Source: a virus
DNA: 64,000 bases
Strand: one strand, 5' to 3'
Virus record (IMG/VR): IMGVR_UViG_3300028840_006907
Location: 192,001-256,000 of that record
In this document: positions 1-53,643 of the stretch, piece by piece
Layout: every line of letters starts with the position of its first letter
How positions within the stretch are numbered: the stretch's first letter is position 1
The notes under the pieces: generated by a model
Seen by the model: the letters and a program-made list of their open reading frames with translations, nothing else
Database searches by the model: none
Told to the model about the DNA's origin: nothing
Translations under genes and position numbers: made by a program

Positions 1-214
1 ACGGTGCTTCCATTGAAACAAATTTCACTTTCCACGTTCTTAATAGCAATCGTAGCCTTTCTCTTTGGGTAATTAACCGTTGTACCAATAGCCCGTCAAT
101 AGGTCTAGTTTGAAAAACACCTGCTTCCAGGACAGATCTTTTTCCTGTTTTATTTTCATCGAAAACAACCCAGCCTAAATGAGTTATTGATGGGTCTAAT
201 GATACTATGGCCAT
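1..214 (-). CDS. RuvC-like Holliday junction resolvase (partial; 3' end lies beyond window start)
   Basis: Minus-strand ORF from ATG at 214-212 running off the window edge; translation MAIVSLDPSITHLGWVVFDENKTGKRSVLEAGVFQT resembles the RuvC N-terminus (MAIILGIDPG...); AGAGAGG RBS upstream. Confidence 0.5.
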   Translation of the reverse strand, partial: MAIVSLDPSITHLGWVVFDENKTGKRSVLEAGVFQTRPIDGLLVQRLITQRERLRLLLRTWKVKFVSMEAP

Positions 215-269
215 ATAAATAAACCTCTCTGTGCCAATGTGAATTGGCACAGGGTGTTTTAAAAGATTA

Positions 270-899
270 TTAAACCTGATCCAGTACGTTATCCAGATCT
301 AATTTTTGAGTTGGATCACTACCCACAGTACTGGAAATACCAAGGAGGTCATTAATGTCTTCTTGTGATAGATTAGAAGCAATAGACTTTTTAATGAAAT
401 CCCATATGGGTTTCGCTTCATCAAGAATAGCCTGTTTAATATTATCTTTTGCTGTCCAAATAGATTCACTGCAAGGAGTAATATCTAGGTGTTGGTACTC
501 TTCATTTGAACAGGATACTTTGATGTCGTGGGTTGCCAAAGGAAATTCTCCGTTAACTGTTTTTAATTTCAAATAGGTTTGTTCACTGAAAAGCCATGGG
601 TACAATTCATACCCAAATGGCTTTTTGAGATTTCCCATTTTGTCGGTGTTATATTTCACGATAACAGCACCAACTCTCCATTTTGCAGGCCCTAATATCT
701 CACAACATTTTCCTTTTTTACAAAGGAAGAATCTGTCTTTAAAATGAATTTTAGATCCTGCAAACATTGCTTTAGGATCCATATAAACTATGGCCGAACG
801 GTGGACTTCACCTTTTTTGCCTTTGTATTTTTCATACATCCCACCTTTGATGTCCTCATTTTCAAATCCAAAGGTTTCAATTTGGTCACTCATTACCAA
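270..899 (-). CDS. hypothetical protein
   Basis: 209-aa ORF in track, co-oriented and tightly spaced with neighbours; no recognisable motif. Confidence 0.5.
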   Translation of the reverse strand: MVMSDQIETFGFENEDIKGGMYEKYKGKKGEVHRSAIVYMDPKAMFAGSKIHFKDRFFLCKKGKCCEILGPAKWRVGAVIVKYNTDKMGNLKKPFGYELYPWLFSEQTYLKLKTVNGEFPLATHDIKVSCSNEEYQHLDITPCSESIWTAKDNIKQAILDEAKPIWDFIKKSIASNLSQEDINDLLGISSTVGSDPTQKLDLDNVLDQV

Positions 900-920
900 T
901 CTCCTTTTACTCTTTAAAAT

Positions 921-1907
921 TTATGAATAGTTGTTTAGTAAATCATCAATATCGATTCCACTATCGTCGTCAATTTTAATTTTTGGATGGTCTTCTTTTT
1001 GGTTAACGACTTCATTTTTTAGATTTTTTGAAATTTTTTCAGTTTCTTTCTCATCTCCTTTTTGTGAGTCTATTTTACCTCCTTTTTTTTCAATATCTAT
1101 AACCTCATCTAGGTCAACTCCATTTTCTGTATCAGTCATTACACCTTTTTCTATTTCAAAAACTTTTTCTTTATCAATAGACCATTCTTCAACAGGAAGA
1201 TCTTCATCTTCAGTATTTTCATCAGGGCTGATATCGGGTACTGGATCAATTAAATTCTCATCTAAGCTCTCATCTTTTTTCTCTTCTTTTTCTTCAGAAA
1301 AGATATCTTCTACATTGACTGGAATGGAAGGATCTGCTATATCATCTGTTGATTCCTCGGCTAAAGCTTCTTTAAAAGAATCAGAATTTGCCATACTTCT
1401 ACCCATCTCTTCCATTAGACCTTTAGCTGCAGCACTTGTAGCATGACCACTTCCAAGTTTTACCTGTGCTTCCAATACTCTTAATTGCAATCTTATATCT
1501 GCATTAGCCCTAGTTAAATTTCTGATTTTCAAGGTGATTGCTTTCAAAAGATTATTAAGGTCGTTTAATTCATTTTGGTAGTTTTGGACTTTTTCACGAT
1601 CTGATCTTAAAAGAAGATTTGCTTGTGCCTCTCTATCCTTGATATTAGGTAGACTTTTAATAGGTTCTTGGGTTAAGAGAGTATCTTTTTTTAATTCAAA
1701 TTCAGCCGTAGAATTATTGAGAGCTTTCTGCATCACTGATAACTCTTTTTGTACTCGGATACTGAAATGCTCTACTTCCTCGATGTAAGCATGACATTCA
1801 CCGATCTTTTGATTAATCTCCGTAGGGTCGGGGATAGCACTGACGTCTATGTTGAATTTTATCTCAAGCAGACGGTCAAAAATTTTACCTTTATATTTCT
1901 CATCCAT
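921..1907 (-). CDS. hypothetical coiled-coil protein with acidic C-terminal region
   Basis: 328-aa ORF; heptad-like Leu/Asn/Gln-rich central part, D/E-rich tail. Confidence 0.5.
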   Translation of the reverse strand: MDEKYKGKIFDRLLEIKFNIDVSAIPDPTEINQKIGECHAYIEEVEHFSIRVQKELSVMQKALNNSTAEFELKKDTLLTQEPIKSLPNIKDREAQANLLLRSDREKVQNYQNELNDLNNLLKAITLKIRNLTRANADIRLQLRVLEAQVKLGSGHATSAAAKGLMEEMGRSMANSDSFKEALAEESTDDIADPSIPVNVEDIFSEEKEEKKDESLDENLIDPVPDISPDENTEDEDLPVEEWSIDKEKVFEIEKGVMTDTENGVDLDEVIDIEKKGGKIDSQKGDEKETEKISKNLKNEVVNQKEDHPKIKIDDDSGIDIDDLLNNYS

Positions 1908-1948
1908 TTTATGTAGTGCTCCTCTTGGATTTTAAAAGATTATTAATG

Positions 1949-2338
1949 TTATTTTTCTCCTAATTGAATCATCTCTAAAGGAATCGAATCATCTTTTAGA
2001 GAATTTACAAATTCTACTGTTTTCACATCCGTAACTTTTCCAAAGAAATACACAGATTTTATACCTACGGAAACTACTAGAATCATTTCATCGAGGTAAG
2101 GAAAATAAGTAGAGAAAAGGATAAAATTTGACATATCAGCATCTTTAGCACCAAATACAGCATCATGGATAGCCGAAACTTCCCATTTCTTATTTTTAAT
2201 TACCTTTTTATTAAATCCGTAAGACTGAATTTGTCTCCCATCCACTAAAACGGCACCTCTTTTGGGTTCACATATGGAGAGGACACTGGCTCCCCATGCG
2301 ATGTTGGCAAAGAATCTTTTCTCTTTTTTTGTAAGCAT
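1949..2338 (-). CDS. dCMP/cytidine deaminase-like protein, zinc-ligand cysteines replaced (possibly inactive)
   Basis: N-terminus ANIAWGASVLSICEPKRGAVLVDGRQIQSYGFN matches the dCMP deaminase N-terminal pattern; where PCxxC is expected the sequence is FPYLDEM; 94-nt overlap with the upstream helicase ORF. Confidence 0.4.
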   Translation of the reverse strand: MLTKKEKRFFANIAWGASVLSICEPKRGAVLVDGRQIQSYGFNKKVIKNKKWEVSAIHDAVFGAKDADMSNFILFSTYFPYLDEMILVVSVGIKSVYFFGKVTDVKTVEFVNSLKDDSIPLEMIQLGEK

Positions 2339-4524
2339 ATTTTTATGCGTTCTCCTAAATTTGTGTTTCTTCTGTGTACACTCGAATTATTTATGGCTTT
2401 TTCTATAGCAGAACCATGACCTATTACAATTACTTTTGTTTTGGCTCTGGTTATAGCTGTGTACAATAAATTTCGTTGTAGCATATTTCTACCAAATTGA
2501 TTTATGAAAGGAAGTATTATAAAGGGATATTCCTGCCCTTGTGCTCGATGAACGGTGAGAGAATAGGCAAGTCTGACTTTTTCTAGAGCCTCATCAACTC
2601 CAATATCTACGGTTTTTTCAATTAAATCAATGGTGAATTTACCACCTCCAACATGAATAACTTTTCCTACCTCACCATTAAATACAGCTAGTTCATAATC
2701 ATTTTTGATAATTATAACCCTATCTCCCCGTCGAATAATAAATTTACCTACAGTACACTCTGTTTCAGGTCCAGCAGGATTTAATACAGCTTGAAGGCCG
2801 TCATTTAATTCATTTACACTTAACGGCCCTTCGTTACGGGGAGTAATGATTTGAAATAATCTACGTTCGTCTTTAAATTTTTGAGCGATTCTTATTATAA
2901 AATTTTGAATTTTTTCTACATTGTTTTCTCTTATGAAAAAAACATCTGCTTTCGGATCAGGTTTGAATAAACTCAAATCAGTATCACCACTCTTAATTCG
3001 GTGTGCTACTTTGATGATATCGGATGCCTCATCTTGACGGAATATCTGTTCCAGTTTTATAATAGGGATTTGACCACAGTGTATAAGTTCTCTTAAAACA
3101 TTTCCAGCACCGACTGAAGGTAATTGATTATTATCTCCAACGAGGATAAGATGTACACGATTTCTTAGAGCTGATAGAAGTCTATAAAAAACTTCCTGAT
3201 CGATCATTGAACTTTCATCTAGAATTACAACATCTGTTTCATATTTATTATGCTCACCGAATAACCAATCATCACCTCGGAATCCCAACCGTCTATGTAT
3301 CGTATACGCCCTGTAATTAATTGTAGTCTCCATTTTCTTAGCTGAAATACCTGTAGGGGCCATACAGGTCAGGTCTAGTTTTAGGCGCTTTATGAGGCTT
3401 ACAACGGCCTTTAACACTGTAGTTTTTCCCGCACCGGGAAGTCCTGTAATAACAAAAACTTTTTTCTCTACAAAATAATAAAGTGCTTTCCTTTGCTCCT
3501 CACTTAATGTAAAGCCGTTTTCGTGTTCAAATTGAGTGATGTGTTCATCAACCGATTTTCGATTCAGAAAAATAAGATCTGATTCTTTTTTAATAATTTT
3601 ACATATTTTTGATGCTGACAAGACTTCAGACATATAACATGATTTTGAGTATAATGATCCTAAATCTTTTACAATTTTCTGATCATCAATAAGATGTTTA
3701 ATATGAATTAAAATATCTGTTACGGTTATGGTTTTCTTATCTATAAAGGTTGTGTTTGTCTCTCGACTGAATCTGTTGATAAGATCTACTGTGTCTTCAA
3801 TGGTAAGAAAAAGATGACCATTGGCAGGACAAAGGACATTTAATGAGTATAATATAAATGCTACTAATCTTGTTGGATCATTTTCTGGAATCCCTAATTG
3901 CCGTGCTATAAAATCAGCAGTACTAAAACCGAATCCTTCTATTTCTGTAAGAAGATACGGATTTTCTCTGATTCTTTCTTCAGCTTCGAGTCCACCTCCA
4001 AAATATCTGAGGATTTTTTTAACTCTTCTTTCTCTAATGCCAAGTGAATTTAAAAAGGCTCTTAAACTATAATCTTGACGCTCTTTCTTCCAGCGATTTC
4101 GGTTAGTTACCCAGGCTTCTGCCAGACTTTCAGCGGAAATTTTACCTATACCTTCAACTTCAATTAAACGAGCTGGTTCAGTATCGAGAACAGTGATAGT
4201 CTCACTGCCAAAATGTTTAACAATTGCCTGAGCCCTTTCGGGTCCTATATTAGGGGATATTGCACCTATAAATAATTCAATACTTTTTATTTCTTCAACA
4301 TTATGGGAAATCGTGAATGAAGTAACTTTGAAATTAGTTCCATACTTATGATGCTTTTTATAATCACCATGGAAATTAGCGACAGTACCACTAACTACTT
4401 CAGGGCCGAATTCACCGATAACAGTAATAACTGGTCCAGATGGTATCCTGACCTTCATTACTTTGAATCCGGATTCTTCATTTTGGAAGATAATTCTTTT
4501 TACTGTACCTTTAACTGTTTCCAA
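2245..4524 (-). CDS. RecD-like SF1 ATP-dependent DNA helicase
   Basis: 759 aa; Walker A GLPGAGKTT, Walker B VVILDESSMID, C-terminal TRAKTKVIVIG-type motif of RecD/TraA family. Confidence 0.8.
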   Translation of the reverse strand: METVKGTVKRIIFQNEESGFKVMKVRIPSGPVITVIGEFGPEVVSGTVANFHGDYKKHHKYGTNFKVTSFTISHNVEEIKSIELFIGAISPNIGPERAQAIVKHFGSETITVLDTEPARLIEVEGIGKISAESLAEAWVTNRNRWKKERQDYSLRAFLNSLGIRERRVKKILRYFGGGLEAEERIRENPYLLTEIEGFGFSTADFIARQLGIPENDPTRLVAFILYSLNVLCPANGHLFLTIEDTVDLINRFSRETNTTFIDKKTITVTDILIHIKHLIDDQKIVKDLGSLYSKSCYMSEVLSASKICKIIKKESDLIFLNRKSVDEHITQFEHENGFTLSEEQRKALYYFVEKKVFVITGLPGAGKTTVLKAVVSLIKRLKLDLTCMAPTGISAKKMETTINYRAYTIHRRLGFRGDDWLFGEHNKYETDVVILDESSMIDQEVFYRLLSALRNRVHLILVGDNNQLPSVGAGNVLRELIHCGQIPIIKLEQIFRQDEASDIIKVAHRIKSGDTDLSLFKPDPKADVFFIRENNVEKIQNFIIRIAQKFKDERRLFQIITPRNEGPLSVNELNDGLQAVLNPAGPETECTVGKFIIRRGDRVIIIKNDYELAVFNGEVGKVIHVGGGKFTIDLIEKTVDIGVDEALEKVRLAYSLTVHRAQGQEYPFIILPFINQFGRNMLQRNLLYTAITRAKTKVIVIGHGSAIEKAINNSSVHRRNTNLGERIKICLQKKRKDSLPTSHGEPVSSPYVNPKEVPF

Positions 4525-4526
4525 GC

Positions 4527-6488
4527 CTACTCTTCTTCGTCAAATAGTGAATAACTTTCGTATTTTATTTTTTTGTTCTCAACTTTAGTTGTTTCTGGTT
4601 CCGGTTTAGGAGTATCTCCAGTTATACCTAACATCTCAAGGAAAATTTTTTCATTAATTACCTGAACTCCGTATTTCTCAGCTTTCTGGGATTTGTTTGA
4701 ACCTTTATCTTCATTACAAACCAAATATGATAAATTTTTAACAACGGAATTCTTATTAGTACCACCATTTTCTTTCACTAATCCTTGGTAATGCCCACGT
4801 GGATGTTCCATTGATCCGGTAAAACAAAAAGACAGTCCGTCCAGAATACCTTTTTTCTCTTCTTCAACAGTAATGACTTTAAGTAATTCTGTGATCTCAG
4901 ATTTATATTTGATTAATCCCATGACTACATTATTTGCTGAAATGTCAGAAAATCCTTTTAAGGCTTTTATATCATCCACACTTTTTTCCATTAAATTCTC
5001 TATTGTACCAAATGCCTTTATTAATTCTTCTGAGGTTCCTTCAGATATCCCAGGGATTCCTAGAGCAGATAAAAACACAACAGGGGTAAGAGTATATGTT
5101 TTATCAATATTATTCATGACTTTTTGAGCAGATTTTTTACCCCATTTTTCAATTACAGCTATATCCTCTTCTTGAAGTCTGTATATATCGAAAATTTTAT
5201 TCAGTTTCCCAGCTTCACTTAATTTGTCAGCTAAGCTTTCACCAAATTCCTCTATTTTAGTAACTTTGATCCAATTTAAAATTCGGTAGAATATTTTTTT
5301 GGGACAATCATCATTTTCACATATGAGTTTGATACCATCATTAAGAAGCTTAGAATTACAGCTAGGGCACTCTGTTGGGATCTCAATAGGGTTACCCATA
5401 TGAGTAAGAACTTTGGTTATCTTTGGGATTATATCCCCGGCTTTAACTACCATTACAACATCACTACGACCTATACCAAGTCTCTTTATTTCGGCAATAT
5501 TATGCAAGGTTGCTTTTTTAACTTCTGACCCATCGATTATTACTGGTTCCAAGTGAGCCAGAGGTGTAACTACTCCTGTTCTCCCTACTTCCCATGTTTC
5601 TTCATTGAATATTGTAGCTGCACCAGGGGGTTCGAATTTCCAGGCTATTTGGGCTTTAGGTCTGTTTCTGGTAACACCCATTTTTTTCTGAACTTGGTAA
5701 GAGTTCACTTTTATGACAGCACCATCAATATCGAAAGGAAGTTTTTCTCGTTCTACAGCTATTTTTTCGAAAGCATCTACGATTTCCTCTTTTTTACCCA
5801 CTACAGTGAAAGGAATGTTAAACCCAAGTTCATCAAGTCGTTTTATTTTATCCTGTTCATCAAGAGGTTCTGTTAAATCATATGCCATTAAGAATAGGTA
5901 TTTACTGAATTTTCCATCCAGTCTTCTACTAATACCAGAAGCAGCATTTCGTGGATTACTATATTTATCATTTTCAGATAAAACTGTATTGATTTCTTTG
6001 AAATGAGTTTTACTTAATAATATTTCAGCTCTAACAGATCCGGTAAAGTCAGGCATTTCAGATCTTAATACTTTCATATGATCTACATTCTCTTTTATAT
6101 TTTCCCCAGTAGTACCATCACCTCTGGTAATAGCTTTGACCAGTTTCGATTCTTCGTGATCAAGAGAGAGGCTTAATCCATCTAATTTATACTGTAAGAT
6201 ATAAACAGTATCAGGTTTGAATTTCGATGCCCACTTGATAAATTCTTCTTTACTATGTACTTTTTCAAGGCTACCCATGAATATACCATGTTTAGCTTTT
6301 TCCCAATGGGAGGATGGCTCATGACCTACCTTTTCAAAGTAAGGGTGATTAGGAGCCTGTTTTTTAACAAGTGCTCTTAAAGTATCATACTCTTCATCAG
6401 TCATAATTGGATGACCAGAAGATTCATAGGCTTTATCTGCAGCAATAAGTTTATTTATGCTTAATTGTATATCTATCTGTTTTCCCAT
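4527..6488 (-). CDS. ligA: NAD-dependent DNA ligase
   Basis: 653 aa; adenylation motif YKLDGLS (KxDG), Cys4 zinc finger CPSCNS...CENDDCP, HhH region, C-terminal BRCT-like LDGLSFCFTG. Confidence 0.9.
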   Translation of the reverse strand: MGKQIDIQLSINKLIAADKAYESSGHPIMTDEEYDTLRALVKKQAPNHPYFEKVGHEPSSHWEKAKHGIFMGSLEKVHSKEEFIKWASKFKPDTVYILQYKLDGLSLSLDHEESKLVKAITRGDGTTGENIKENVDHMKVLRSEMPDFTGSVRAEILLSKTHFKEINTVLSENDKYSNPRNAASGISRRLDGKFSKYLFLMAYDLTEPLDEQDKIKRLDELGFNIPFTVVGKKEEIVDAFEKIAVEREKLPFDIDGAVIKVNSYQVQKKMGVTRNRPKAQIAWKFEPPGAATIFNEETWEVGRTGVVTPLAHLEPVIIDGSEVKKATLHNIAEIKRLGIGRSDVVMVVKAGDIIPKITKVLTHMGNPIEIPTECPSCNSKLLNDGIKLICENDDCPKKIFYRILNWIKVTKIEEFGESLADKLSEAGKLNKIFDIYRLQEEDIAVIEKWGKKSAQKVMNNIDKTYTLTPVVFLSALGIPGISEGTSEELIKAFGTIENLMEKSVDDIKALKGFSDISANNVVMGLIKYKSEITELLKVITVEEEKKGILDGLSFCFTGSMEHPRGHYQGLVKENGGTNKNSVVKNLSYLVCNEDKGSNKSQKAEKYGVQVINEKIFLEMLGITGDTPKPEPETTKVENKKIKYESYSLFDEEE

Positions 6489-45089: not shown

Positions 45090-45428
45090 TTAGTCTAAAA
45101 ACTTCTCAATATTTTCTATTGAATTAATGATTTTACCATTTTCTTGTATGAAATAAAATCTTTTTCCACATTTTATACAACTTATTACAGCCATGTTGGG
45201 AACAACTTCTTTAAAATGAAATTGATTATTGATTTGATCTATTACTGATTGCATATTTGAGAAGATGGTATTTCTTTGATATAATGTGAAGACATATTTA
45301 CAGTGAGGGCAGATAATTCGATGAGGATCAACAATTTTTTCCTTATGTTTTTTTATAAGTTCTATGATAAAACTTATAATAATGTAAATACTGAGAAAAG
45401 TCATGGGAAAAATTAATAATTCTTTCAT
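45090..45428 (-). CDS. hypothetical membrane-anchored zinc-ribbon protein
   Basis: N-terminal hydrophobic helix, CPHC ... CIKCGKRF. Confidence 0.45.
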   Translation of the reverse strand: MKELLIFPMTFLSIYIIISFIIELIKKHKEKIVDPHRIICPHCKYVFTLYQRNTIFSNMQSVIDQINNQFHFKEVVPNMAVISCIKCGKRFYFIQENGKIINSIENIEKFLD

Positions 45429-45429
45429 T

Positions 45430-45813
45430 CTAAAGATAATCCTCTATTCGTTTAGCCTTTTCATTCAGATATAATAGGACTTTTTCATCATCTTTGATTT
45501 TACCTTTATCATCGATATATGAAGTCATCTCAATAGATTTGATAGGTTTAACAGTCCCATGATTGATTTCAATTTTTCTATGTACTCCTTTTACTAACAA
45601 GTCAATTTCTTCTTTCTCATCTGAGTCCCAGTGGTACTCTGGGAATAAATAATTAATCTGATTCTTACCATAACCTTTAAATCGACTCAGGATGAAACTG
45701 TTATCAAATTTGTTAAATATGCCTAAAGTCGAATTTCTTGCCATTATAAGATACAGGCAATTGTGTATACATTTATTTAATGGGACATATGATTTAAATT
45801 TCTCTATGCTCAT
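45430..45813 (-). CDS. hypothetical protein
   Basis: 127-aa ORF tightly coupled to E1-like gene. Confidence 0.45.
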   Translation of the reverse strand: MSIEKFKSYVPLNKCIHNCLYLIMARNSTLGIFNKFDNSFILSRFKGYGKNQINYLFPEYHWDSDEKEEIDLLVKGVHRKIEINHGTVKPIKSIEMTSYIDDKGKIKDDEKVLLYLNEKAKRIEDYL

Positions 45814-46474: not shown

Positions 46475-46999
46475 TCATCCTATCCTAGCTATAATGCGAT
46501 CTTTTAACAAGACAAAGGGAATTTCAATACAACCTACAATCCGGTCTTTGTCTCTTTTATATAAATAAAATCTTTGTACTTCTGATTTGATTCCACATAA
46601 TAACGGTTTACCCAAAGCTTTGACCCAACCAGTCATAGTTTTATCATCTAAGGATGAAGGTTCCATTATATTACTTGGATGAGTATGATTAAAACCTACT
46701 ATTTTATTTCTGTCTCTGATTACTTTTTCCCAGTCAAAATCAACTGAACCAGGACCACCAGTGGATTCATAGATTAGTCTACCATAAATCCATTTGCAGT
46801 ATTTTTTACCATATATGATCCAACAATTTTCGTTAATTGTTTGTACTACTTCAATAGCTTCTATTGTTAATTTATTTTTATTGTAAATACCTTTATATGT
46901 TCGACCACATTCTGGGCATGGCATTCTTTGTGTTTCATTTTCTGTAATCCAGCATATATATTTTCCGCACTTACATGTAAATTCACTGCTTTCGGGCAT
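46475..46999 (-). CDS. JAMM/MPN+ metalloprotease with N-terminal zinc ribbons
   Basis: HTH-PSNIMEP-S-SL-D fits JAMM motif HxHx7Sx2D; two CxxC pairs at N-terminus. Confidence 0.7.
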   Translation of the reverse strand: MPESSEFTCKCGKYICWITENETQRMPCPECGRTYKGIYNKNKLTIEAIEVVQTINENCWIIYGKKYCKWIYGRLIYESTGGPGSVDFDWEKVIRDRNKIVGFNHTHPSNIMEPSSLDDKTMTGWVKALGKPLLCGIKSEVQRFYLYKRDKDRIVGCIEIPFVLLKDRIIARIG

Positions 47000-47025: not shown

Positions 47026-47925
47026 CTAATACAACGTTCTACTTATTTGATGAGTGCGTTGACCCTCTTTTATTACAGAAATTAATGCTTTTAAATCATA
47101 GTCTTTATCACCAACATGACCTGTTTCATGGTCGGTTAAACAGATGCCTGCAGTAATAACGTGGTGACTTTGATCTTTAGTAACAATAGTATTAAATTTC
47201 TCTCCATCGATTTCATATGTTACATAAATATGATCCGATTTTTCATCACTGCTCAGGTATTTACCTCCGGCAAATTCTATATCACGTTGAATCTTTGTTT
47301 TTTTCTTTTCTTCAAGTGCTCGTTCACGTTCTTCTTTGATTTTTAAATCGATTTTGTATTTTATGTTAAAAGCAATTTTCTCCTCCAATGTCAGACCAGA
47401 GAATTTTAATTTAGATGGGTCTCTGAATTCTTTCAGGGACTCATTAAGATAATCTGTAATCATCGGATCGGCTGACATATCCATTGAATCAAACCAGATA
47501 TTAGCTCCGTCAAATCGGCATAGACATTTAGAAAATGTTGTAACCATATCATCGAAAAGAAGAACTGGGTATAATTCTGATACTTTTAATCCCAGATGAT
47601 TACTCTTTATCGGGATCCCAAGATAAAAATCTTTCTTTTTATGTACTAAAACCATTCTTATCTTTGGTAAATATTTAAGATAAGATTGAATCTCATCTAT
47701 TTCCGCTAAATCTATTGCTTCAGCCCGTTTATTATCAAGTGCTTTGAATTTGTACCATCCCGGTTCTGTTTTCGGGATGTTTAAGTAATGAATAATTCCT
47801 TGAATACGGATAATGATTCGGTCATTATAATACACAGGAGAAATGATAGTCTTTTCAGTCATCATTTCTTCCTGTTTCCCTATTTTATCAATAAGGTTTA
47901 AAATATTATCTTTTCTTACGGTCAA
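47026..47925 (-). CDS. hypothetical protein
   Basis: 299-aa ORF between JAMM and Ro60-like genes. Confidence 0.5.
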   Translation of the reverse strand: MTVRKDNILNLIDKIGKQEEMMTEKTIISPVYYNDRIIIRIQGIIHYLNIPKTEPGWYKFKALDNKRAEAIDLAEIDEIQSYLKYLPKIRMVLVHKKKDFYLGIPIKSNHLGLKVSELYPVLLFDDMVTTFSKCLCRFDGANIWFDSMDMSADPMITDYLNESLKEFRDPSKLKFSGLTLEEKIAFNIKYKIDLKIKEERERALEEKKKTKIQRDIEFAGGKYLSSDEKSDHIYVTYEIDGEKFNTIVTKDQSHHVITAGICLTDHETGHVGDKDYDLKALISVIKEGQRTHQISRTLY

Positions 47926-49462
47926 AAGATTTCCTCACGGGTAAAGGTGTATCCATGATCTCATATAGAAGATCGAGTTTTGATTTTCTGGATAGCAATG
48001 GAATTAATCCAGGCAATCCATAGTAATCGCTACCTTCAGGTTCATAGTAATCGAAAGGTATTCTAGCTTGTTTTAAATACATGCTGAATTCTTTACGACT
48101 CCATGAACTTGGAATGTAAATAATAGTAATAGTAGGAGTCACATTAAATTTTTTAACATAATTATCCCATATCTCAACGAAAAATGGATTATTATTTTCA
48201 CCTTCATCAGTGACCACTATTATCTGTTCTACATAATAGTTTTTTCTAATAAGGTAATCTAATGCTATACCTATGGAAGTCCCACCATTACTTTTTACAG
48301 GTCTGAAAGCCCTTTCCCAGGCAGACATATTCGGTTCATTAGCTGTGATCTCTCTGGCCATTGTATCAAAAGTAATAGCATAGAGAGGAGCTTCTGTAGC
48401 ACCTGAAATAAGAGCCGCAACATTTTTTCCGACTTCGATGGCTTGAGTCATAGAACCTGATTTATCGATAAAGACTGCAGTAGGTACTTTTATAACACCT
48501 TTCTTTTTAATTTGCTGATCTGCAATTTCATCGAGGATCTTTTGAGATTCCTCATTTTTGATCCGACCTGTTTTCTTTGCTTCTTTGGATTTTAAAGCTG
48601 ATACATTTTTAGCTTTTTTAGCTTTTTCCAATTTAGCCGTAATCAATGTTTTTGTATCCTCATTGTCCATGGCACCACGTTCTTCTAGGGAAGCATAGTT
48701 ATTAATAACTTCCTGTGGAGACATAGCATTGATTAGAGCAATCAGAATTGTAGGAGTGATTTGATCAACCAAACCTACAGCCACCGTATAAGGTACTTTA
48801 TGTTCTATAATCAGCTTTGCCACTTCAGTCGGATTATCAGCTTGTGCTATTTTTTCGAAAACATTTAATTTACTGTCCGTAGGACGTTCATTTCCGAAAA
48901 GAATCTTCTGAGCACGTTCACTAGGTGCTATACGAAGAGTAGCATATAATCCTTTAAGATCTTTTGGACTTTTTAGGGCAATAGCATCAAAAAGATCGTT
49001 GTTGGTTTCAATATATTGAAGAAATTTCTCAACATCCCTTTTAAAGGCAGTAGGAATATTTTTGTAAAGACCTACATTTTTTTCTTCAATTTTTACTTCA
49101 TCGATCATTTTTTTCTTCATTTTTATTTTTTTGCCCGTTTTATTTCTGATCTTTATTTTTTTACCTTTAATAAAACCGACCACACGTCTTTTAAGATATA
49201 CAGGTATTTCCCTGAAGAGGGCTAGCCCAACTTCACGGTTGTCAAGAAATTCATCAACAATAAGTGAACCGATGAATACTTCTTTATGATCCCGAATATC
49301 TCCATTCTTGTAGTACCAGCTTCCAAGGTGGGCATAAAACAGCGGATCTGCTTTTTGTAATTCAAGATGGGTATTTTTTAATTTATCTAGGTCCCGGTGA
49401 GGGCAACTCAGAAATGAGTTAAGCATGTTAACTCTGATATCATTTTCGTTAGCTTGGTTCAT
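47906..49462 (-). CDS. rsr: Ro60/Rsr-like RNA-binding protein (TROVE-like N-terminal region plus vWA domain)
   Basis: C-terminal vWA with MIDAS residues FIDKSGSM, NGGTSIG, VVTDEGEN (same arrangement as Ro60 DVSASM / AGGTD / FTDNE as recalled); N-terminal ~320 aa with ILIAL helix; next to tRNA-mimic RNAs. Confidence 0.6.
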   Translation of the reverse strand: MNQANENDIRVNMLNSFLSCPHRDLDKLKNTHLELQKADPLFYAHLGSWYYKNGDIRDHKEVFIGSLIVDEFLDNREVGLALFREIPVYLKRRVVGFIKGKKIKIRNKTGKKIKMKKKMIDEVKIEEKNVGLYKNIPTAFKRDVEKFLQYIETNNDLFDAIALKSPKDLKGLYATLRIAPSERAQKILFGNERPTDSKLNVFEKIAQADNPTEVAKLIIEHKVPYTVAVGLVDQITPTILIALINAMSPQEVINNYASLEERGAMDNEDTKTLITAKLEKAKKAKNVSALKSKEAKKTGRIKNEESQKILDEIADQQIKKKGVIKVPTAVFIDKSGSMTQAIEVGKNVAALISGATEAPLYAITFDTMAREITANEPNMSAWERAFRPVKSNGGTSIGIALDYLIRKNYYVEQIIVVTDEGENNNPFFVEIWDNYVKKFNVTPTITIIYIPSSWSRKEFSMYLKQARIPFDYYEPEGSDYYGLPGLIPLLSRKSKLDLLYEIMDTPLPVRKSFDRKKR

Positions 49463-49483
49463 AATATCTCATCCTCCTTATGT

Positions 49484-49750
49484 TCAGGTTTCAATTTTTC
49501 CGAAAGTAGCATTTGGTCTAACTGTAATGTTACCATTTTTATGGTGTTCAACAACTAATTCAGCAAATTCTGATGCTGGTCTATCATAATGATCTACTAA
49601 AGCCAATTTAATTTGTTCACCAGTTATATTATCCGATGTGATCTCGGTTCCTGGTTCAATCCCGAGTTGTTCCCATCTGTCTTCTGGGAAAAGATCTTTG
49701 AGATTAATATCTTCAGTTTGACCATCATACATTATATGGACTTCACTCAT
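49484..49750 (-). CDS. hypothetical small protein (first gene of the Ro60-like operon)
   Basis: ATG at 49750 with RBS AAGGAGG; promoter-like motif upstream; 88 aa. Confidence 0.5.
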   Translation of the reverse strand: MSEVHIMYDGQTEDINLKDLFPEDRWEQLGIEPGTEITSDNITGEQIKLALVDHYDRPASEFAELVVEHHKNGNITVRPNATFGKIET

Positions 49751-49790
49751 ATGAGCCTCCTTGTAATAAGTTAAAAAAAGAGTCCCGTAT

Positions 49791-49806
49791 ATTATACGAC
49801 ACGAGA
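49791..49806 (-). promoter_or_regulatory. promoter-like motif TCTCGTGTCGTATAAT (minus strand)
   Basis: Copy of recurrent element ~35 nt upstream of the minus-strand operon RBS. Confidence 0.45.
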
Positions 49807-49888
49807 TTAACATTTCATTAAGTAAAAAATTGGGTAGAATATAAATTCTTGTGTGTCATCATGGTAAATAACTTTTTTAAAAAAATTA

Positions 49889-49917
49889 TTGACACACTTA
49901 AAATTTATGGTTATATT
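49889..49917 (+). promoter_or_regulatory. sigma70-like promoter candidate for the tRNA / structured RNA locus
   Basis: TTGACA, 17-nt spacer, TATATT, ~40 nt upstream of tRNA. Confidence 0.4.
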
Positions 49918-49955
49918 ATTGACAGTTCTGCACTCTAACTTTTGATGCTTACATA

Positions 49956-50032
49956 GAGAAAATAGCTCAGTTGGTCAGAGCGCGAGATTTAGGTTCTTGA
50001 AGTCTTCGGTTCAATTCCGAATTTTCTTACCA
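49956..50032 (+). tRNA. tRNA, predicted anticodon UAG (Leu-type) with short variable loop and encoded CCA
   Basis: Cloverleaf: acceptor GAGAAAA/TTTTCTT, D arm GCTC-AGTTGGTCA-GAGC, anticodon arm CGAGA-TTTAGGT-TCTTG, 5-nt variable loop, T arm TTCGG-TTCAATT-CCGAA, A73, CCA. Confidence 0.75.
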
Positions 50033-50249
50033 TAAAATTAGCACCTTCAACTTGTGCAGAACTACTTAAACCAAGAAATAAAAGTCAGACATTCTAATTA
50101 TTAGGGCGTACATGGCGTTAAAACCATGCTTCCTGCAGAAATCAGGAAGCAATCTCTGGGCCAAGGCTCAGGGGCGCACTGATGACTTATGTCTGACTTA
50201 ATATAGATTGTAAAGTGTTGTAAAATAAATTTGATCTTTGAAAATTATA

Positions 50250-50429
50250 GGATAATGCCTTCTAACCTGTTGGGCTTACAAATTTTACTGGTTCGACTCC
50301 AGGTTCCGCCTCTCGGTCCTTTTGTAAAGATTGTAAAGGATCAGGAGGCGGAACAAGCCGGGTGGTCTGGCGATTGAATGCAAATCAATTTATTTGAAAT
50401 TAACGCTCTTTTAACTTGGGCATTTATCC
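50250..50429 (+). ncRNA. tRNA-mimic structured RNA unit 1 (Y RNA / YrlA-like candidate)
   Basis: Outer stem GGATAATGCC/GGCATTTATCC then T-run; T-arm-like GGTTCGACTCC; long hairpin GTTCCGCCTC...GAGGCGGAAC; D-arm-like GCCGGGTGGTCTGGC; hairpin ATTGA-ATGCAAA-TCAAT. Confidence 0.55.
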
Positions 50430-50477
50430 TTTTTTATAGTAATTTATAATTTTATATAAAGTGATCTTTGAAAATAT

Positions 50478-50660
50478 GAGGTAAGTGCCTCCTAACATAA
50501 CGGGCTTACAAATTAATAGGGTTCAACTCCCTGTTCCCCCGCCTAAGTCTTTGTCATATAATGATTAAGATTTGGGCGGGGGAACGAGCTGGGTGGTTCA
50601 GCAATCAACGTTTAATTGATGAAAAACATTTTTACGCTCTTTTAACTTAGGCACTTACTC
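50478..50660 (+). ncRNA. tRNA-mimic structured RNA unit 2 (Y RNA / YrlA-like candidate)
   Basis: Outer stem GAGGTAAGTGCC/GGCACTTACTC then T-run; T-arm-like GGGTTCAACTCCC; long hairpin GTTCCCCCGCC...GGCGGGGGAAC; D-arm-like GCTGGGTGGTTCAGC; hairpin ATCAA-CGTTTAA-TTGAT. Confidence 0.55.
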
Positions 50661-50683
50661 TTTTTATTAAATTGAAATTACAA

Positions 50684-50855
50684 GGAGCACCTTCTAACCT
50701 GTTGGGCTTACAAGTTATTCGGGGTTCAAATCCCTGTCCCGGCACTAGGTTGATTCCCTAAAAGTCAACCCAGTGCCGGGATAGCCAAATTGGTAAAGGC
50801 GACTATATTGAACATAGTAAACAAAACTATCTACGCTCTTTTAACTTGGGTGCTC
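50684..50855 (+). ncRNA. tRNA-mimic structured RNA unit 3 (Y RNA / YrlA-like candidate)
   Basis: Outer stem GGAGCACC/GGTGCTC; T-arm-like GGGGTTCAAATCCC; long hairpin TCCCGGCACT...AGTGCCGGGA; D-arm-like GCCAAATTGGTAAAGGC; hairpin ACTAT-ATTGAAC-ATAGT. Confidence 0.55.
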
Positions 50856-50899
50856 TTTATATATTTCTCGCAAAAGGAATACAGGGTGAAACAGGAGTA

Positions 50900-50940
50900 T
50901 AGGGATTAAGAAGAAATTTTTGATCCCTATTTTATTTTTT
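50900..50940 (+). terminator. terminator candidate after RNA locus
   Basis: TAGGGAT ... ATCCCTA stem with 16-nt loop followed by TTTTATTTTTT. Confidence 0.35.
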
Positions 50941-50955
50941 CCCGGATTTTCCCTA

Positions 50956-50972
50956 CCTTCATGTCGTATAAT
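50956..50972 (+). promoter_or_regulatory. promoter-like motif CCTTCATGTCGTATAAT
   Basis: 16/17 identical to the element at 18192-18208; ~45 nt upstream of ATG 51016. Confidence 0.45.
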
Positions 50973-51015
50973 TATTAGATAAAGATTTTCTAAACATTTT
51001 ATTAGGTAATTAATT

Positions 51016-53643
51016 ATGACATGTAAAATTTGTAAGAGTAATCTTTCTTATACTTTTGATAAATTTCCAGCTTATAAGTTCTGTCCTTGTTGTAACCTTT
51101 ATTTTCAAGAAGAATTTCCACCAAAGATATTTGAAGGTCCTGATGAGAATAACGGGCATGGTCCCGGTACAGGTCATTTAATGTCTGAGGATGAAAAGGA
51201 AATAAATAAAAATTTCGCTAATGTTCTCTATGATATGTTTATTCCTCGAACTCTTCTAGATATAGGTTGTAAATACCCCTATTTTATTAGTGTGTTAAAA
51301 GATAAAATAGATGTATTAGGAATTGATCCTATTTCAGAGATCTTGAAATATGGAGAAGAATTGGGTGTCTCTGTAATTCGTGATGATTTTGAAGATATGA
51401 ATATTACTCCTTTAAAAAATAAATTCGATTTAATAACTTTGATACATACTTTCGAACATTTTTATAGCCCAATAGAGACCATGAAAAAGATAATCGAATG
51501 TCTTACTCATAGAGGAGTGCTTTTAATAAGAATTCCAAACATAGATATTGAAGGTATAGAAAGAGATTTTACTGATCATCATGTTCAAATCCATCCCTTT
51601 ATATATTCAACACAAGCAATGTATCGAATCGCTCAAAAATTTGATTGTGAAATTTTTAGGGTCGATGATATTATTGGATATGGCCAGAGCGATTTTTATT
51701 TAAGGAAGAAAAGGGACCATCTTTCTTTATCGGTTTGTATGATTGTAAAAGATGAGGAAAAGAATGTTTCTGATTGTTTGGAGAGTATAAAAGATGTAGC
51801 TGATGAAATCATAGTTGTGGATACCGGATCTATAGATAATACCAAAGAAATAGTATCCAAATATACAACAAAGATATATGACTTTAAATGGATTGATGAC
51901 TTTTCTGCTGCTAGAAATCACTCTTTAAGTAAGGCAACGGGTGACTTTATTTTATGGCTTGATGCTGATGATATTGTAGAAAATCCAGAAAAGATTAATG
52001 AAATATTAAAAAATGATGATGCTAAGATATTTAATTTTAATATTAAATATGGAAATGATGTCTTTAGTCAGGCTAGACTATTTAGGAATTTTTATAATAT
52101 AAAATTTTCTGGTAGAGTTCATGAATATCCTGTAATCGATAATTTATATATAAAAGATACTGAAGTTAATGTAATTCATAAAACCGAAAAACATTCAACA
52201 GAAAACCGTTCTGATAGAAATCTCCGTCTCCTTAAAAAAGAATACGAAGATAATCCGAACAATTCCCGGACACTTTTTTACCTGGCAAGTGCTTATAAAG
52301 AACTTACTCGTTGGGATGAAGCTATAGATTTTTATCGAAAATATTTAACTATTTCTATCTGGAAAGATGAGAGATGGATGGCTCAAAAGAATATTGGATG
52401 TATTCTTTCCTGGAATAGAAAATATGAAGAAGCCATTGAAGAATTGAAGAAGGCTATTGAAATAGATGATCGATGGGCTGAGTCATATTATTATATAGCT
52501 GAGTGTTATTTCTATTTAAAAAACCCTCAAGAATGTATAAACTGGTCTTTAAAAGCTATTGAGAAAAAGATGCCCGAATCACCTCTTTGGAAAGAGATCC
52601 CAATTTATAATGACGCACCATACCGTTATCTCTTTGCTTCTTATGGTTCTTTAGGTGATTTTGAGAAAGCATTGCATTATTGTAAGATAGCATCAGAAAA
52701 AGTTCCTGAGGATGAATGGCTTAAGGAAAGAGTCACTTATTTTGAGAATGCTACAAAAGGAGTTCCTGTTGTAGTCGAATGTAATCGGTGGGGGGCTTTG
52801 GGTGATTGTTTAATGACAACTGCATCTTTACGTGCCATTAAGCATAAGATTCCGGGTTGTTTTATAAGATATGTCACCCATCCTAGTATGTTCCCGATCC
52901 TTGAAGGGAATAAGTTTATAGATGAACTTGTATCAGAATCTAAATCTGAGAACTCAGAAAAGGTTTATTTCTCATATCCTGACAGTAAATCTCCTATTAA
53001 AGATGAAGGTTATCCTAATAAGCCTTTGAATCGCCATTTAGTACGTATATTCGCAGAATGTGCTGGTTTAAAAGAATTTGATAATCTAAAGATGGAGTGT
53101 ACTCTTACAAAAGATGAGGAGAAATCAGGTCAGTCATTGAGATCTCGATTTAAGAAATATGTGACTCTTCATATCCATTCGGGTTGGTCTGAGTATAAGG
53201 ATTGGTATAATGATCGTTGGGAGACTGTTGTAGATGAGTTATTTAAAAGAGGTTACGTGGTTGTTCAGCTAGGCCATAAAGATGAGGGTCTCTTAGTTGG
53301 TACTGTGGATTATAGAGGCCATACTATAAAAGAAGCTATCTCTGCAATAAAATATGCTGATATTCATTTAGGAGTGGATTCATTTACAAACCATGCCTCG
53401 GCTACTGTGGGGACTCCTGCAGTTATTTTATTTGGGTCTACTTCTCCAACCGGTTCCGGGTATGATCAGAATATAAACCTTTATAAAGATTTGAAATGTC
53501 AGCCTTGTTATAAAGAATATGCATGGTCTAAGGATAATAAAGGAAAATGTCCTTATAATAAACTATGTATGGATCAGATCCTGGTTCAGGAAGTATTAGA
53601 CGGTTTTATGAGATTAGAAAAAAAATTATTTATTGATGGATAA
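51016..53643 (+). CDS. multidomain glycosyltransferase (Zn-ribbon, methyltransferase-like, GT2, TPR, GT9-like)
   Basis: N-terminal CxxC pairs; LLDIGC methyltransferase-like motif; GT2 core SVCMIVKDEE...EIIVVDTGSIDNT...LWLDADD; TPR-like helices; C-terminal GT9-type LGVDSFTNHASATVGTPAVILFG. Confidence 0.7.
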   Translation: MTCKICKSNLSYTFDKFPAYKFCPCCNLYFQEEFPPKIFEGPDENNGHGPGTGHLMSEDEKEINKNFANVLYDMFIPRTLLDIGCKYPYFISVLKDKIDVLGIDPISEILKYGEELGVSVIRDDFEDMNITPLKNKFDLITLIHTFEHFYSPIETMKKIIECLTHRGVLLIRIPNIDIEGIERDFTDHHVQIHPFIYSTQAMYRIAQKFDCEIFRVDDIIGYGQSDFYLRKKRDHLSLSVCMIVKDEEKNVSDCLESIKDVADEIIVVDTGSIDNTKEIVSKYTTKIYDFKWIDDFSAARNHSLSKATGDFILWLDADDIVENPEKINEILKNDDAKIFNFNIKYGNDVFSQARLFRNFYNIKFSGRVHEYPVIDNLYIKDTEVNVIHKTEKHSTENRSDRNLRLLKKEYEDNPNNSRTLFYLASAYKELTRWDEAIDFYRKYLTISIWKDERWMAQKNIGCILSWNRKYEEAIEELKKAIEIDDRWAESYYYIAECYFYLKNPQECINWSLKAIEKKMPESPLWKEIPIYNDAPYRYLFASYGSLGDFEKALHYCKIASEKVPEDEWLKERVTYFENATKGVPVVVECNRWGALGDCLMTTASLRAIKHKIPGCFIRYVTHPSMFPILEGNKFIDELVSESKSENSEKVYFSYPDSKSPIKDEGYPNKPLNRHLVRIFAECAGLKEFDNLKMECTLTKDEEKSGQSLRSRFKKYVTLHIHSGWSEYKDWYNDRWETVVDELFKRGYVVVQLGHKDEGLLVGTVDYRGHTIKEAISAIKYADIHLGVDSFTNHASATVGTPAVILFGSTSPTGSGYDQNINLYKDLKCQPCYKEYAWSKDNKGKCPYNKLCMDQILVQEVLDGFMRLEKKLFIDG

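Follow-up and report, generated by a model that had tools for sequence, protein, structure and literature searches.

A Ro60-like phage protein encoded beside a tandem array of structured RNAs that carry tRNA, three-hairpin and permuted tRNA-like cargo

The relatives that the human autoantigen Ro60 has in bacteria and viruses are still poorly understood, and the role of the tRNA-like part of bacterial Y RNAs is an open question. Genes for Y RNA-like transcripts adjoin Ro60 in more than 250 bacteria and phages (PMC4201824). Here we describe a locus on a 64,000-nucleotide stretch of DNA from a huge phage (positions 192,001 to 256,000 of the IMG/VR record IMGVR_UViG_3300028840_006907), hereafter called the window. 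The locus encodes a protein of 518 residues, referred to as Ro60L, which is predicted to be a highly divergent member of the Ro60/Rsr fold with a HEAT-type ring plus a von Willebrand factor A (vWA) domain bearing a metal ion-dependent adhesion site (MIDAS). Divergently upstream of it lie five tandem RNA units, in which a common terminal structure, here termed the clamp, encloses a variable cargo. These five units belong to one structured RNA family without a curated Rfam model.

The 64-kb window derives from a phage, as it encodes a terminase large subunit, clamp loaders, a ribonucleotide reductase, an NAD-dependent ligase and helicases. Here and in the related phage loci, the conserved order is RNA array, small protein of 88 residues, Ro60L, a protein of 299 residues (p299), JAB metallopeptidase and ThiF-type protein (Table 1). 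Public contigs carry an identical 518-residue protein; one of them comprises 388,651 bp, and its cluster lists a contig of 469,617 bp.

Table 1. Features of the locus, with positions in the window and the basis of each assignment
Feature	Position	Strand	Basis
ThiF-type E1-like adenylyltransferase, 213 residues	45829..46470	-	Pfam, NCBIfam, synteny
JAB/JAMM metallopeptidase with N-terminal zinc ribbon	46475..46999	-	Prok-JAB, motif, synteny
p299, 299 residues, no known family	47026..47925	-	OB-fold-type beta-barrels and helices, invariant Cys262
Ro60L, 518 residues	47906..49462	-	open reading frame; AlphaFold2 model; PDB profile matches; Foldseek; invariant MIDAS
Small conserved protein, 88 residues, starts MSEVH, between RNAs and Ro60L	49484..49750	-	gene call, alignment A5, synteny
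Promoter-like site ATGAAA-16-TATAAT before the small-protein/Ro60L operon, divergent from the array	49791..49818	-	consensus match only
Promoter-like site TTGACA-17-TATATT before the RNA array	49889..49917	+	11/12 positions; consensus match only
Clamp unit 1, tRNA-Leu(UAG) cargo	49924..50063	+	P1 of 10 bp, loop UCUAAC/AACUU, P2, UACA
Clamp unit 2 ("X"), three non-tRNA-like hairpins as cargo	50082..50199	+	fold z-score, clamp
Clamp unit 3, permuted tRNA mimic, loop AUGCAAA ("GCA")	50249..50432	+	fold, repeat, clamp, ARAGORN
Clamp unit 4, permuted tRNA mimic, loop CGUUUAA ("UUU")	50480..50659	+	fold, repeat, clamp, ARAGORN
Clamp unit 5, permuted tRNA mimic, loop AUUGAAC ("UGA")	50682..50858	+	fold, repeat, clamp, ARAGORN
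Intrinsic-terminator-like hairpin with T-run at the end of the RNA array	50899..50930	+	

Sequence and predicted fold of the Ro60-like protein

A preliminary description of the locus had proposed that Ro60L joins a C-terminal vWA domain with a complete MIDAS to a helical N-terminal region of about 320 residues, and that it resembles Ro60/Rsr proteins. Our data bear out these proposals, the resemblance extending over the whole length. The MIDAS consists of the motifs DKSGSM (residues 333-338), GGTS (393-396) and TDEGE (418-422), and the key residues D333, S335, S337, T395 and D419 are invariant in an alignment of relatives that share 26-63% identity with Ro60L. In the AlphaFold2 model (predicted local distance difference test score 82.9, predicted template modelling score 0.75), a helical N-terminal two-thirds is followed by a Rossmann-like vWA domain; residues ~1-320 are predicted to be helical, except for a beta-hairpin insertion at residues 101-130. 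This Lys-rich insertion, KKIKIRNKTGKKIKMKKKMIDEVKIEEKNVGLYK (window positions 49073-49162), is predicted to form a long beta-hairpin inside the helical ring region. It is kept in close relatives of Ro60L; for many of the more distant family members the alignment starts only near residue 130.

To place the predicted fold, the model was compared with the PDB by using Foldseek. The top 13 matches were all Ro60/Rsr structures, aligned over the full length (528-578 columns) with template modelling (TM) scores of 0.55-0.63, and the next tier comprised vWA-only matches with TM scores of ~0.25. A structure search of BFVD likewise matched the model to phage proteins annotated as TROVE or Ro-like. In line with this, a profile built from 48 diverse relatives of Ro60L (A2) matched human Ro60 (9nen; E=4.5e-18, chain residues 229-504), Xenopus Ro60 (1yvp; E=5e-13), the Ro60 protein of Thermus phage phiLo (9l5y; E=1.6e-10, chain residues 61-431 aligned with positions 24-396 of the profile) and Deinococcus Rsr (2nvo; E=3e-7). 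Hereby, the diverse profile was needed, as a profile of close relatives (A1) reached a TROVE structure at E=0.27 only. The Pfam family vWA_Ro60 (PF25045) was matched by 11 of the 48 relatives (best E=5.4e-8), the window protein itself not being among them.

Searches with Ro60L as a single sequence were far less informative. They gave only sub-threshold vWA matches in Pfam, nothing in NCBIfam, nothing by phmmer against PDB sequences and, in PHROGs, only a vWA-level match to a family labelled HNH endonuclease. The comparison with Pfam TROVE (PF05731), which had been suggested as a check, went against expectation, with the family going undetected in Ro60L and in the 48 relatives. Since the profile and Foldseek comparisons match Ro60 and Pfam TROVE fails to, Ro60L appears to have the fold and domain order of Ro60 with a sequence beyond the curated TROVE model. 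The preliminary description had named one outcome that would speak against it, namely an N-terminal region lacking similarity to the TROVE/HEAT ring combined with a vWA domain of an unrelated family; because Ro60/Rsr matches were obtained by profile, in the PDB and in BFVD, this is not what we find.

The family is large: 1,086 matches were obtained in a word-indexed search and, at 50% identity, 876 representatives of clusters. A homologue 45% identical to Ro60L is encoded in the 595-kb uncultured phage record LR756511.1. Hundreds of proteins now labelled "VWA domain-containing" or "hypothetical" are hence Ro60-like.

The clamp RNA array and its cargo

Upstream of Ro60L, on the opposite strand, three direct repeats of ~180 nt (units 3-5) stand out, which fold much better than shuffled controls (z = -5.2, -8.2 and -5.9); unit 2 shows the same property (z = -7.6). 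In every unit the clamp is composed of P1, in which the 5' and 3' ends are paired, a conserved internal loop with the strands 5' YCUAAC and 3' RACUY, P2 and an invariant UACA. P1 measures 7-16 bp in the window units and up to 29 bp elsewhere. Three RNAs and a separate tRNA had previously been noted at this place. Their position and strand were given correctly; the number was not, as there are five related units, unit 2 having been missed, and the tRNA is not unrelated to the others, as the same terminal stem encloses it. Judging from the promoter-like site at 49889 and the terminator-like hairpin that ends at 50930, the array is probably transcribed as a single RNA.

The proposed pairing was evaluated on 45 units, taken from the window and from 12 viral loci. 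Each of the 13 P1/P2 pairs shows changes in both partners. Of all P1/P2 cells, 94% are paired, compared to 54% in column shuffles and 29-42% with slid partners, a percentage that is inflated, as the units were chosen partly by P1/P2 complementarity. This selection bias does not affect the variety of pair types or an independent model search, for which a covariance model was trained on 46 bacterial clamp units only. The bacterial-only model finds unit 1 of the window over all 124 model positions (1-124; 47.3 bits, E=5e-9) and matches the clamp alone in unit 2 (27.3 bits, E=2.5e-6). In the viral loci it detects ~40 full-length units, all upstream of the gene and on the same strand. Ordinary tRNAs of these loci have no clamp, and their matches are confined to model positions 35-89. 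Because a model built from bacterial units alone finds the phage units, the circularity of the covariation test is removed. Units 3-5 of the window are not recovered as whole units by this model, since their topology and length differ; they rest on motif and pairing and on the un-permutation test described below. A well-supported new structured RNA family is thereby added.

Simpler searches were of little use. A loose DNA pattern, TAACN{5,8}GCTTACAN{85,115}AACTY, was run over the viral collection and discarded as giving chance matches, none of which showed clamp pairing among the matches listed. Exact searches with the motifs GGGCTTACAA and CGCTCTTTTAAC missed relatives because the motif drifts.

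The clamp encloses cargo of very different kinds. Unit 1 contains a canonical tRNA-Leu(UAG) at positions 49956-50032 with an encoded CCA, and canonical tRNAs are carried by many related clamp units. Unit 2 holds three hairpins without tRNA features, a type of cargo that recurs in the viral loci L005, L218 and L220. In units 3-5 the cargo runs from a T-arm with canonical UUCRANY loop through a long capped hairpin and a D-arm with GG to a single nucleotide and a 5-bp stem with 7-nt loop. The capped hairpin is the acceptor stem in closed form (19 bp in unit 3). Such capped acceptor hairpins have no CCA and measure 19-24 bp in the window and 7-9 bp in other loci. We un-permuted these units in silico, i.e. 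the capped hairpin was cut and the ends were rejoined in the variable region, before submitting them to ARAGORN. All permuted units tested (11/11) were called tRNAs, with the window units being assigned as tRNA-Cys(gca) (unit 3), tRNA-Lys(ttt) (unit 4) and tRNA-Ser(tga) (unit 5). As ARAGORN calls them tRNAs once un-permuted, units 3-5 represent circularly permuted tRNA mimics. Related loci hold further kinds of unit: some tRNA bodies have the clamp in place of the acceptor stem (only Rfam tRNA positions 7-64 are matched), and in others a V-like hairpin is combined with a T-arm and a capped acceptor.

One might regard units 3-5 as true permuted or split tRNA genes, which RNase P opening, 3' trimming and CCA addition would turn into working tRNAs, the clamp ends being joined, or not, by an RNA ligase such as RtcB and Ro60L acting as a maturation chaperone. 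The un-permuted sequences do score as tRNAs with normal geometry of the D-, anticodon- and T-arms, and YrlA of M. smegmatis is cut by RNase P and gains CCA in vivo (PMC4201824); moreover, a close relative of the window carries an RtcB gene 2.8 kb downstream. Set against this are the acceptor hairpins, which lack CCA, vary in length as given above and shrink to a stem of only 5 bp in cyanobacterial units, and the anticodon loops, which break tRNA rules by G33 in unit 4 and by pyrimidines at position 37 in relatives. Furthermore, no bulge-helix-bulge (BHB) motif was seen in the clamp, nor was a splicing endonuclease seen, and the window open reading frames (ORFs) scanned include no RtcB. In view of these points we consider maturation to working tRNAs very unlikely.

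The anticodon loops of the cargo deserve a description of their own. Among 12 near-identical cyanobacterial units (L143 5120-5945, L149, L166, L175, L212) the 7-nt loop occurs in 8 sequences with any base at position 37, and the flanks are invariant. An orthologous phage tRNA unit has an identical T-arm and the anticodon UAG, CGG or UCG in three phages (unit 1 of the window, L218 2889-3025, L219 2904-3048). Anticodons of the suppressor type were also observed within the arrays or close to them: UCA (opal) in two viral loci (L009 4215-4291, L010 4700-4771), CUA (amber; ARAGORN "tRNA-Pyl"), which many Nostoc genomes (for example L157 3781-3854, L216 3475-3550) have ~2 kb upstream of the gene, and a "stop" anticodon at L187 3131-3204. 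Anticodons with A34 (AUU, AAU, AAG, ACG) are frequent among the cargo tRNAs.

Linkage of gene and RNA, and the partner genes

In almost all related viral loci, clamp units are found upstream of the Ro60L homologue; they do so on the same strand in L001, L003-L009, L011-L013 and L015 (32-59% protein identity). Three close relatives (70-79% identity) share the divergent orientation of the window's array along with its cargo classes (tRNA, X, permuted). The linkage extends to bacteria, where a scan of one genome per species yielded at least 447 Ro60L relatives. The best 80 of these at least 447 loci come mostly from filamentous cyanobacteria, with Planctomycetota and others in addition. Upstream sequence of 700 nt or more was available for 73 loci. 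In 66 of these, the 3 kb upstream of the gene contain at least one clamp unit on the same strand, and the clamp density amounts to 0.92 units/kb upstream of the gene vs 0.03/kb elsewhere. That clamp units sit upstream in 66/73 bacterial loci is the strongest evidence for protein and RNA working together.

Several loci show additional features. On L003, a 141-kb viral contig, a HEARO RNA is located closely upstream of the clamp array at 3094-3279 (+), where RF02033 scores 90 bits and exceeds the gathering score; this is the family of the IscB-associated omega RNA. L138 (QNDG01000040.1), an 8-kb contig of a metagenome-assembled genome (MAG) of candidate division KSB1, contains the whole phage-type cassette with the array, as in the window, on the opposite strand (67% identity), and the homologues P0055 and P0083 are located on contigs of up to 424 kb labelled Candidatus Nanoarchaeia. 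The KSB1- and Nanoarchaeia-labelled contigs are probably huge-phage contigs that were mis-binned into MAGs. A long array of ~15-27 tRNA genes directly precedes the Ro60-like system in L143, L149, L151, L166, L175 and L212 (~100-5100), loci that come from several genomes of Laspinema, Phormidium and Oscillatoria. Such tRNA arrays have been described in Anabaena as a stress-induced tRNA operon, in a paper that makes no mention of vWA, ThiF or Ro60 neighbours (PMC8421152).

In the 88-residue protein encoded beside Ro60L, G84 is invariant (alignment A5). Of 120 relatives, 45 end with this Gly, and the remaining ones add variable tails, mostly of 1-7 residues. The protein has no Pfam match, so that no ubiquitin-like (Ubl) family can be assigned in this way, and is a candidate ubiquitin-like or sulfur-carrier protein. 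The JAB protein matches Pfam Prok-JAB at E=1.6e-4 (21.9 bits, below the curated cut-off of 25 bits), contains the motif HTHPSNIMEPSSLD (HxHx7Sx2D) and has desampylase as its best NCBIfam match (E=0.004). The ThiF protein matches Pfam ThiF above the cut-off (E=1.9e-23) as well as the ThiF, MoeB and UbaA families of NCBIfam. At the level of sequence, the combination of a Gly-ended protein, a ThiF E1 and a putative JAMM-motif peptidase is the signature of Ubl or sulfur-carrier systems of the ThiS/MoaD/SAMP/TtuB type. An E2, a PP-loop thiolase, a nuclease and an RNA ligase were not found among the window ORFs scanned. In a tblastn search of the 6-kb flanks of the 80 bacterial loci, p299 was found in 35, ThiF in 33 and the small protein in 23; the flanking genes of two bacterial loci showed no informative domains.

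Other neighbours were noted as well. A match to Pfam RtcB was obtained at L219 7896-8560 (+), within a gene of 779 residues that starts ~950 nt downstream of ThiF and 2.8 kb downstream of the Ro60-like gene, in a relative whose Ro60-like protein is 75% identical to that of the window; no RtcB was present among the window ORFs scanned. Beside the RNA array of the window (51016-53643, +), a protein of 875 residues combines a methyltransferase, a glycosyltransferase of family 2, TPR and a glycosyltransferase of family 9, and its position is kept in the close relatives L218-L220 and in L138. The two small ORFs that follow ThiF (45090-45813, -), of 127 and 112 residues, the latter with zinc-ribbon motifs, have no informative family match and are not conserved at that position in relatives.

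With the cassette at hand, the clamp might be understood as a processing or stability signal for host RNases, attached to ordinary phage tRNAs and decayed pseudogenes, while Ro60L would bind no RNA and serve the Ubl pathway, for example by receiving the small Gly-ended protein at its vWA/MIDAS domain. A precedent is found in ribosome assembly, where UBL domains are bound by MIDAS domains, and an MDN1-MIDAS/NLE1-UBL complex is indeed among the vWA-level structural matches. The conservation of the cassette with E1, JAB and small protein, the canonical tRNA with CCA in unit 1 and the canonical tRNAs of many related units would fit such a function. However, the clamp also holds non-tRNA and permuted cargo, from which RNase P and 3' trimming alone yield no tRNA, and such units are kept as classes in relatives; the other tRNAs of the same loci have no clamp. 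A mere signal is likewise at odds with a 30-fold enrichment of the clamp directly upstream of one gene family, across phyla and phages, and with the conservation of the whole Ro60 ring, an RNA-binding fold, beyond the vWA domain. This account thus seems quite unlikely to us.

The diversity of the anticodon loops suggests yet another possibility, namely a tRNA-centred conflict system in which clamp RNAs serve as decoys or sensors, with diversifying loops, against anticodon nucleases or other tRNA-targeting effectors. Hereby, a bacterial defence would have been captured by huge phages as counter-defence. The 8 loop sequences between invariant flanks, the tRNA unit that has orthologues in the window, L218 and L219 and that keeps its T-arm and changes its anticodon arm, and the frequent occurrence of the family in filamentous cyanobacteria and planctomycetes, together with its presence in huge phages, agree with this. 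Yet the cassette revealed no gene for a nuclease or another effector, and loop variation among paralogues could reflect different tRNA ancestries. We regard such a conflict system as unlikely; it would refine, and does not exclude, the explanation preferred below.

Interpretation and comparison with known systems

We favor, with a probability of roughly 60%, a particle of the Ro60-Y RNA type whose RNA handle and operon partners differ from those of Rsr-YrlA. The most likely partners of Ro60L would be the five RNAs encoded divergently upstream, the transcript presumably being processed into its units. The clamp would then be the counterpart of the Y RNA stem, a handle held by the Ro60-like ring, and the variable cargo that of the Y RNA effector module. 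Through capped acceptor stems and intact anticodon arms in the mimics, the cargo could show a tRNA shape to tRNA-recognising proteins. The small Gly protein, E1, JAB and the OB-fold protein probably modify or regulate the RNA or the particle, either by Ubl conjugation or by a thiocarboxylate sulfur relay, by analogy with SAMP/UbaA and TtuB/TtuC. In the phage, such a particle may handle or protect tRNAs, or engage host tRNA-acting enzymes during infection.

A number of observations weigh against a particle of this type. Pfam TROVE does not match Ro60L at E<=1, nor any of the 48 relatives at E<=0.01. In Rfam, only tRNA passes for the window, with Y RNA and YrlA being absent even at E<=10 over positions 49400-51100. 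The motif by which Y RNAs of bacteria and phages are recognised, GNCGAAN0-1G/CGAA, is missing from the clamp with its strands UCUAAC..GCNUACA and NGCNN..RACUY, and CGAA occurs nowhere outside the T-loops. The selection of units noted above belongs here, too. Genuine CCA-bearing tRNAs are enclosed by the clamp as well, which could therefore be no more than a signal for processing, and another protein of the cassette, e.g. the OB-fold protein p299, could be the RNA binder. Finally, the Ubl arm may be accessory, or too diverged to detect, since its partners were found in only 23-35 of the 80 bacterial loci.

When these points are taken into account, the earlier proposal of Y RNAs with tRNA mimicry holds for the tRNA shape and for the linkage to the gene; an assignment to Rfam Y RNA/YrlA and a CGAA-type motif do not follow. 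Similarly, the locus had been viewed as a complete Ro60-Y RNA module of a phage. It is part of a larger cassette, comprising the Gly-ended protein, the OB-fold protein, JAB and E1, and this cassette is also widespread in bacteria.

A more far-reaching possibility, which we put forward as tentative and rather doubtful, is a previously undescribed system, widespread among bacteria and huge phages, in which a Ro60 ring, a Ubl/E1/JAB set and a Cys-bearing OB-fold protein act on RNAs with a tRNA scaffold. These tRNA mimics would make up a programmable panel whose members serve as decoys, sensors or guides in the conflict between host and phage over tRNA. The anticodon loops would diversify between strains, and Ubl or sulfur would possibly be transferred onto the RNA or the particle. 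If true, such a panel would be functionally distinct from the Rsr-YrlA-RtcB module of repair and decay. Several features make the locus amenable to testing: one handle carries cargo ranging from true tRNAs to permuted mimics, the loops vary between close strains, and the partners are ubiquitin-like or sulfur-carrier enzymes instead of RNA ligases. Besides huge phages, cyanobacteria that can be cultured (Nostoc, Calothrix, Laspinema) are open to study of the system.

Among known systems, Rsr-YrlA/YrlB of Deinococcus, Salmonella and Mycobacterium comes closest. Both share the Ro60 fold with ring and vWA/MIDAS, several noncoding RNA genes that directly adjoin the protein gene, RNA ends paired into a stem with a conserved loop or bulge, and an occurrence in bacteria and phages. 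The module of bacterial YrlA is ordered as T-arm, capped acceptor stem-loop and D-arm (Chen 2014, PMC4201824), and the same order is present in units 3-5; unit 2 is without a tRNA-like module. The Ro60-binding motif of bacterial Y RNAs is GNCGAAN0-1G (PMC4201824). Unlike YrlA, the clamp handle has the motif YCUAAC/RACUY with UACA, no GNCGAA and no Rfam match; the mimics keep a full anticodon arm, so that the handle emerges at the variable-loop position and not at that of the anticodon stem; and some clamp units carry complete tRNAs with CCA. Unlike Rsr, Ro60L goes undetected by Pfam TROVE. In the rsr-yrlBA-rtcBA operon the partners of Rsr are RtcB and RtcA, whereas those of the clamp system are the Gly-ended protein, E1, JAB and the OB-fold protein.

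Ro60 proteins of phages are already known, and some jumbo phages encode TROVE proteins with a tRNA-like partner (Iyer 2021, PMC7824862). The Ro60 protein of phage phiLo binds two upstream Y-like RNAs and modulates the host polynucleotide phosphorylase (PNPase) (Hu 2025, PMC12135203); Yrl1 and Yrl2, as these RNAs are called, were identified there by a CGAA motif in a bulged stem. Like phiLo Ro60 (PDB 9l5y, 9kop), Ro60L is phage-encoded and has candidate Y-like RNAs upstream, and the two can be aligned almost over their full length by profile (E-value given above) with TM scores of 0.55-0.62 and an identity of ~14-15%. Unlike the phiLo RNAs, the clamp has no CGAA motif, and the abstract and the section on RNA binding in PMC12135203 do not mention Ubl, E1 or JAB partners.

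Turning to the partner genes, sets of Ubl, E1 and JAMM proteins double as sulfur carriers in tRNA thiolation, as in archaeal SAMP-UbaA-JAMM1, Thermus TtuB-TtuC and eukaryotic Urm1-Uba4. The cassette shares with them a small protein with C-terminal Gly (sometimes with a short tail), a ThiF-type E1 without E2, a candidate JAB peptidase and the link to tRNA-shaped RNA. It differs in that the window ORFs scanned revealed no PP-loop thiolase (TtuA/Ncs6), Pfam recognises nothing in the small protein and an additional OB-fold partner with an invariant Cys is present.

Circularly permuted tRNA genes occur in the red alga Cyanidioschyzon merolae, and split tRNAs in Nanoarchaeum. As in these, the 3' half, composed of T-arm and 3' acceptor strand, comes first in units 3-5 and is followed by the 5' half with 5' acceptor strand, D-arm and anticodon arm; a helix holds the termini. 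Unlike these, units 3-5 are broken in the variable region, their acceptor has a hairpin cap and no CCA, a BHB motif is missing, the anticodon loops are irregular, and the hosts are bacteria and phages, which are not known to have the splicing endonuclease.

In conclusion, we regard the locus as a distinct subfamily of the Ro60-like kind that has an RNA family and operon partners of its own, because the fold and profile of Ro60 and the position, stem and mimicry of Y RNAs are found, while TROVE, the binding motif and an Rfam match are not. A literature search returned no description of the clamp RNA or the cassette, though an earlier description remains possible; hence the Ro60L subfamily, the clamp RNA family and the ubiquitin-like linkage appear to be new. 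Alongside Rsr-YrlA, the locus offers a second, independent Ro60-RNA lineage.

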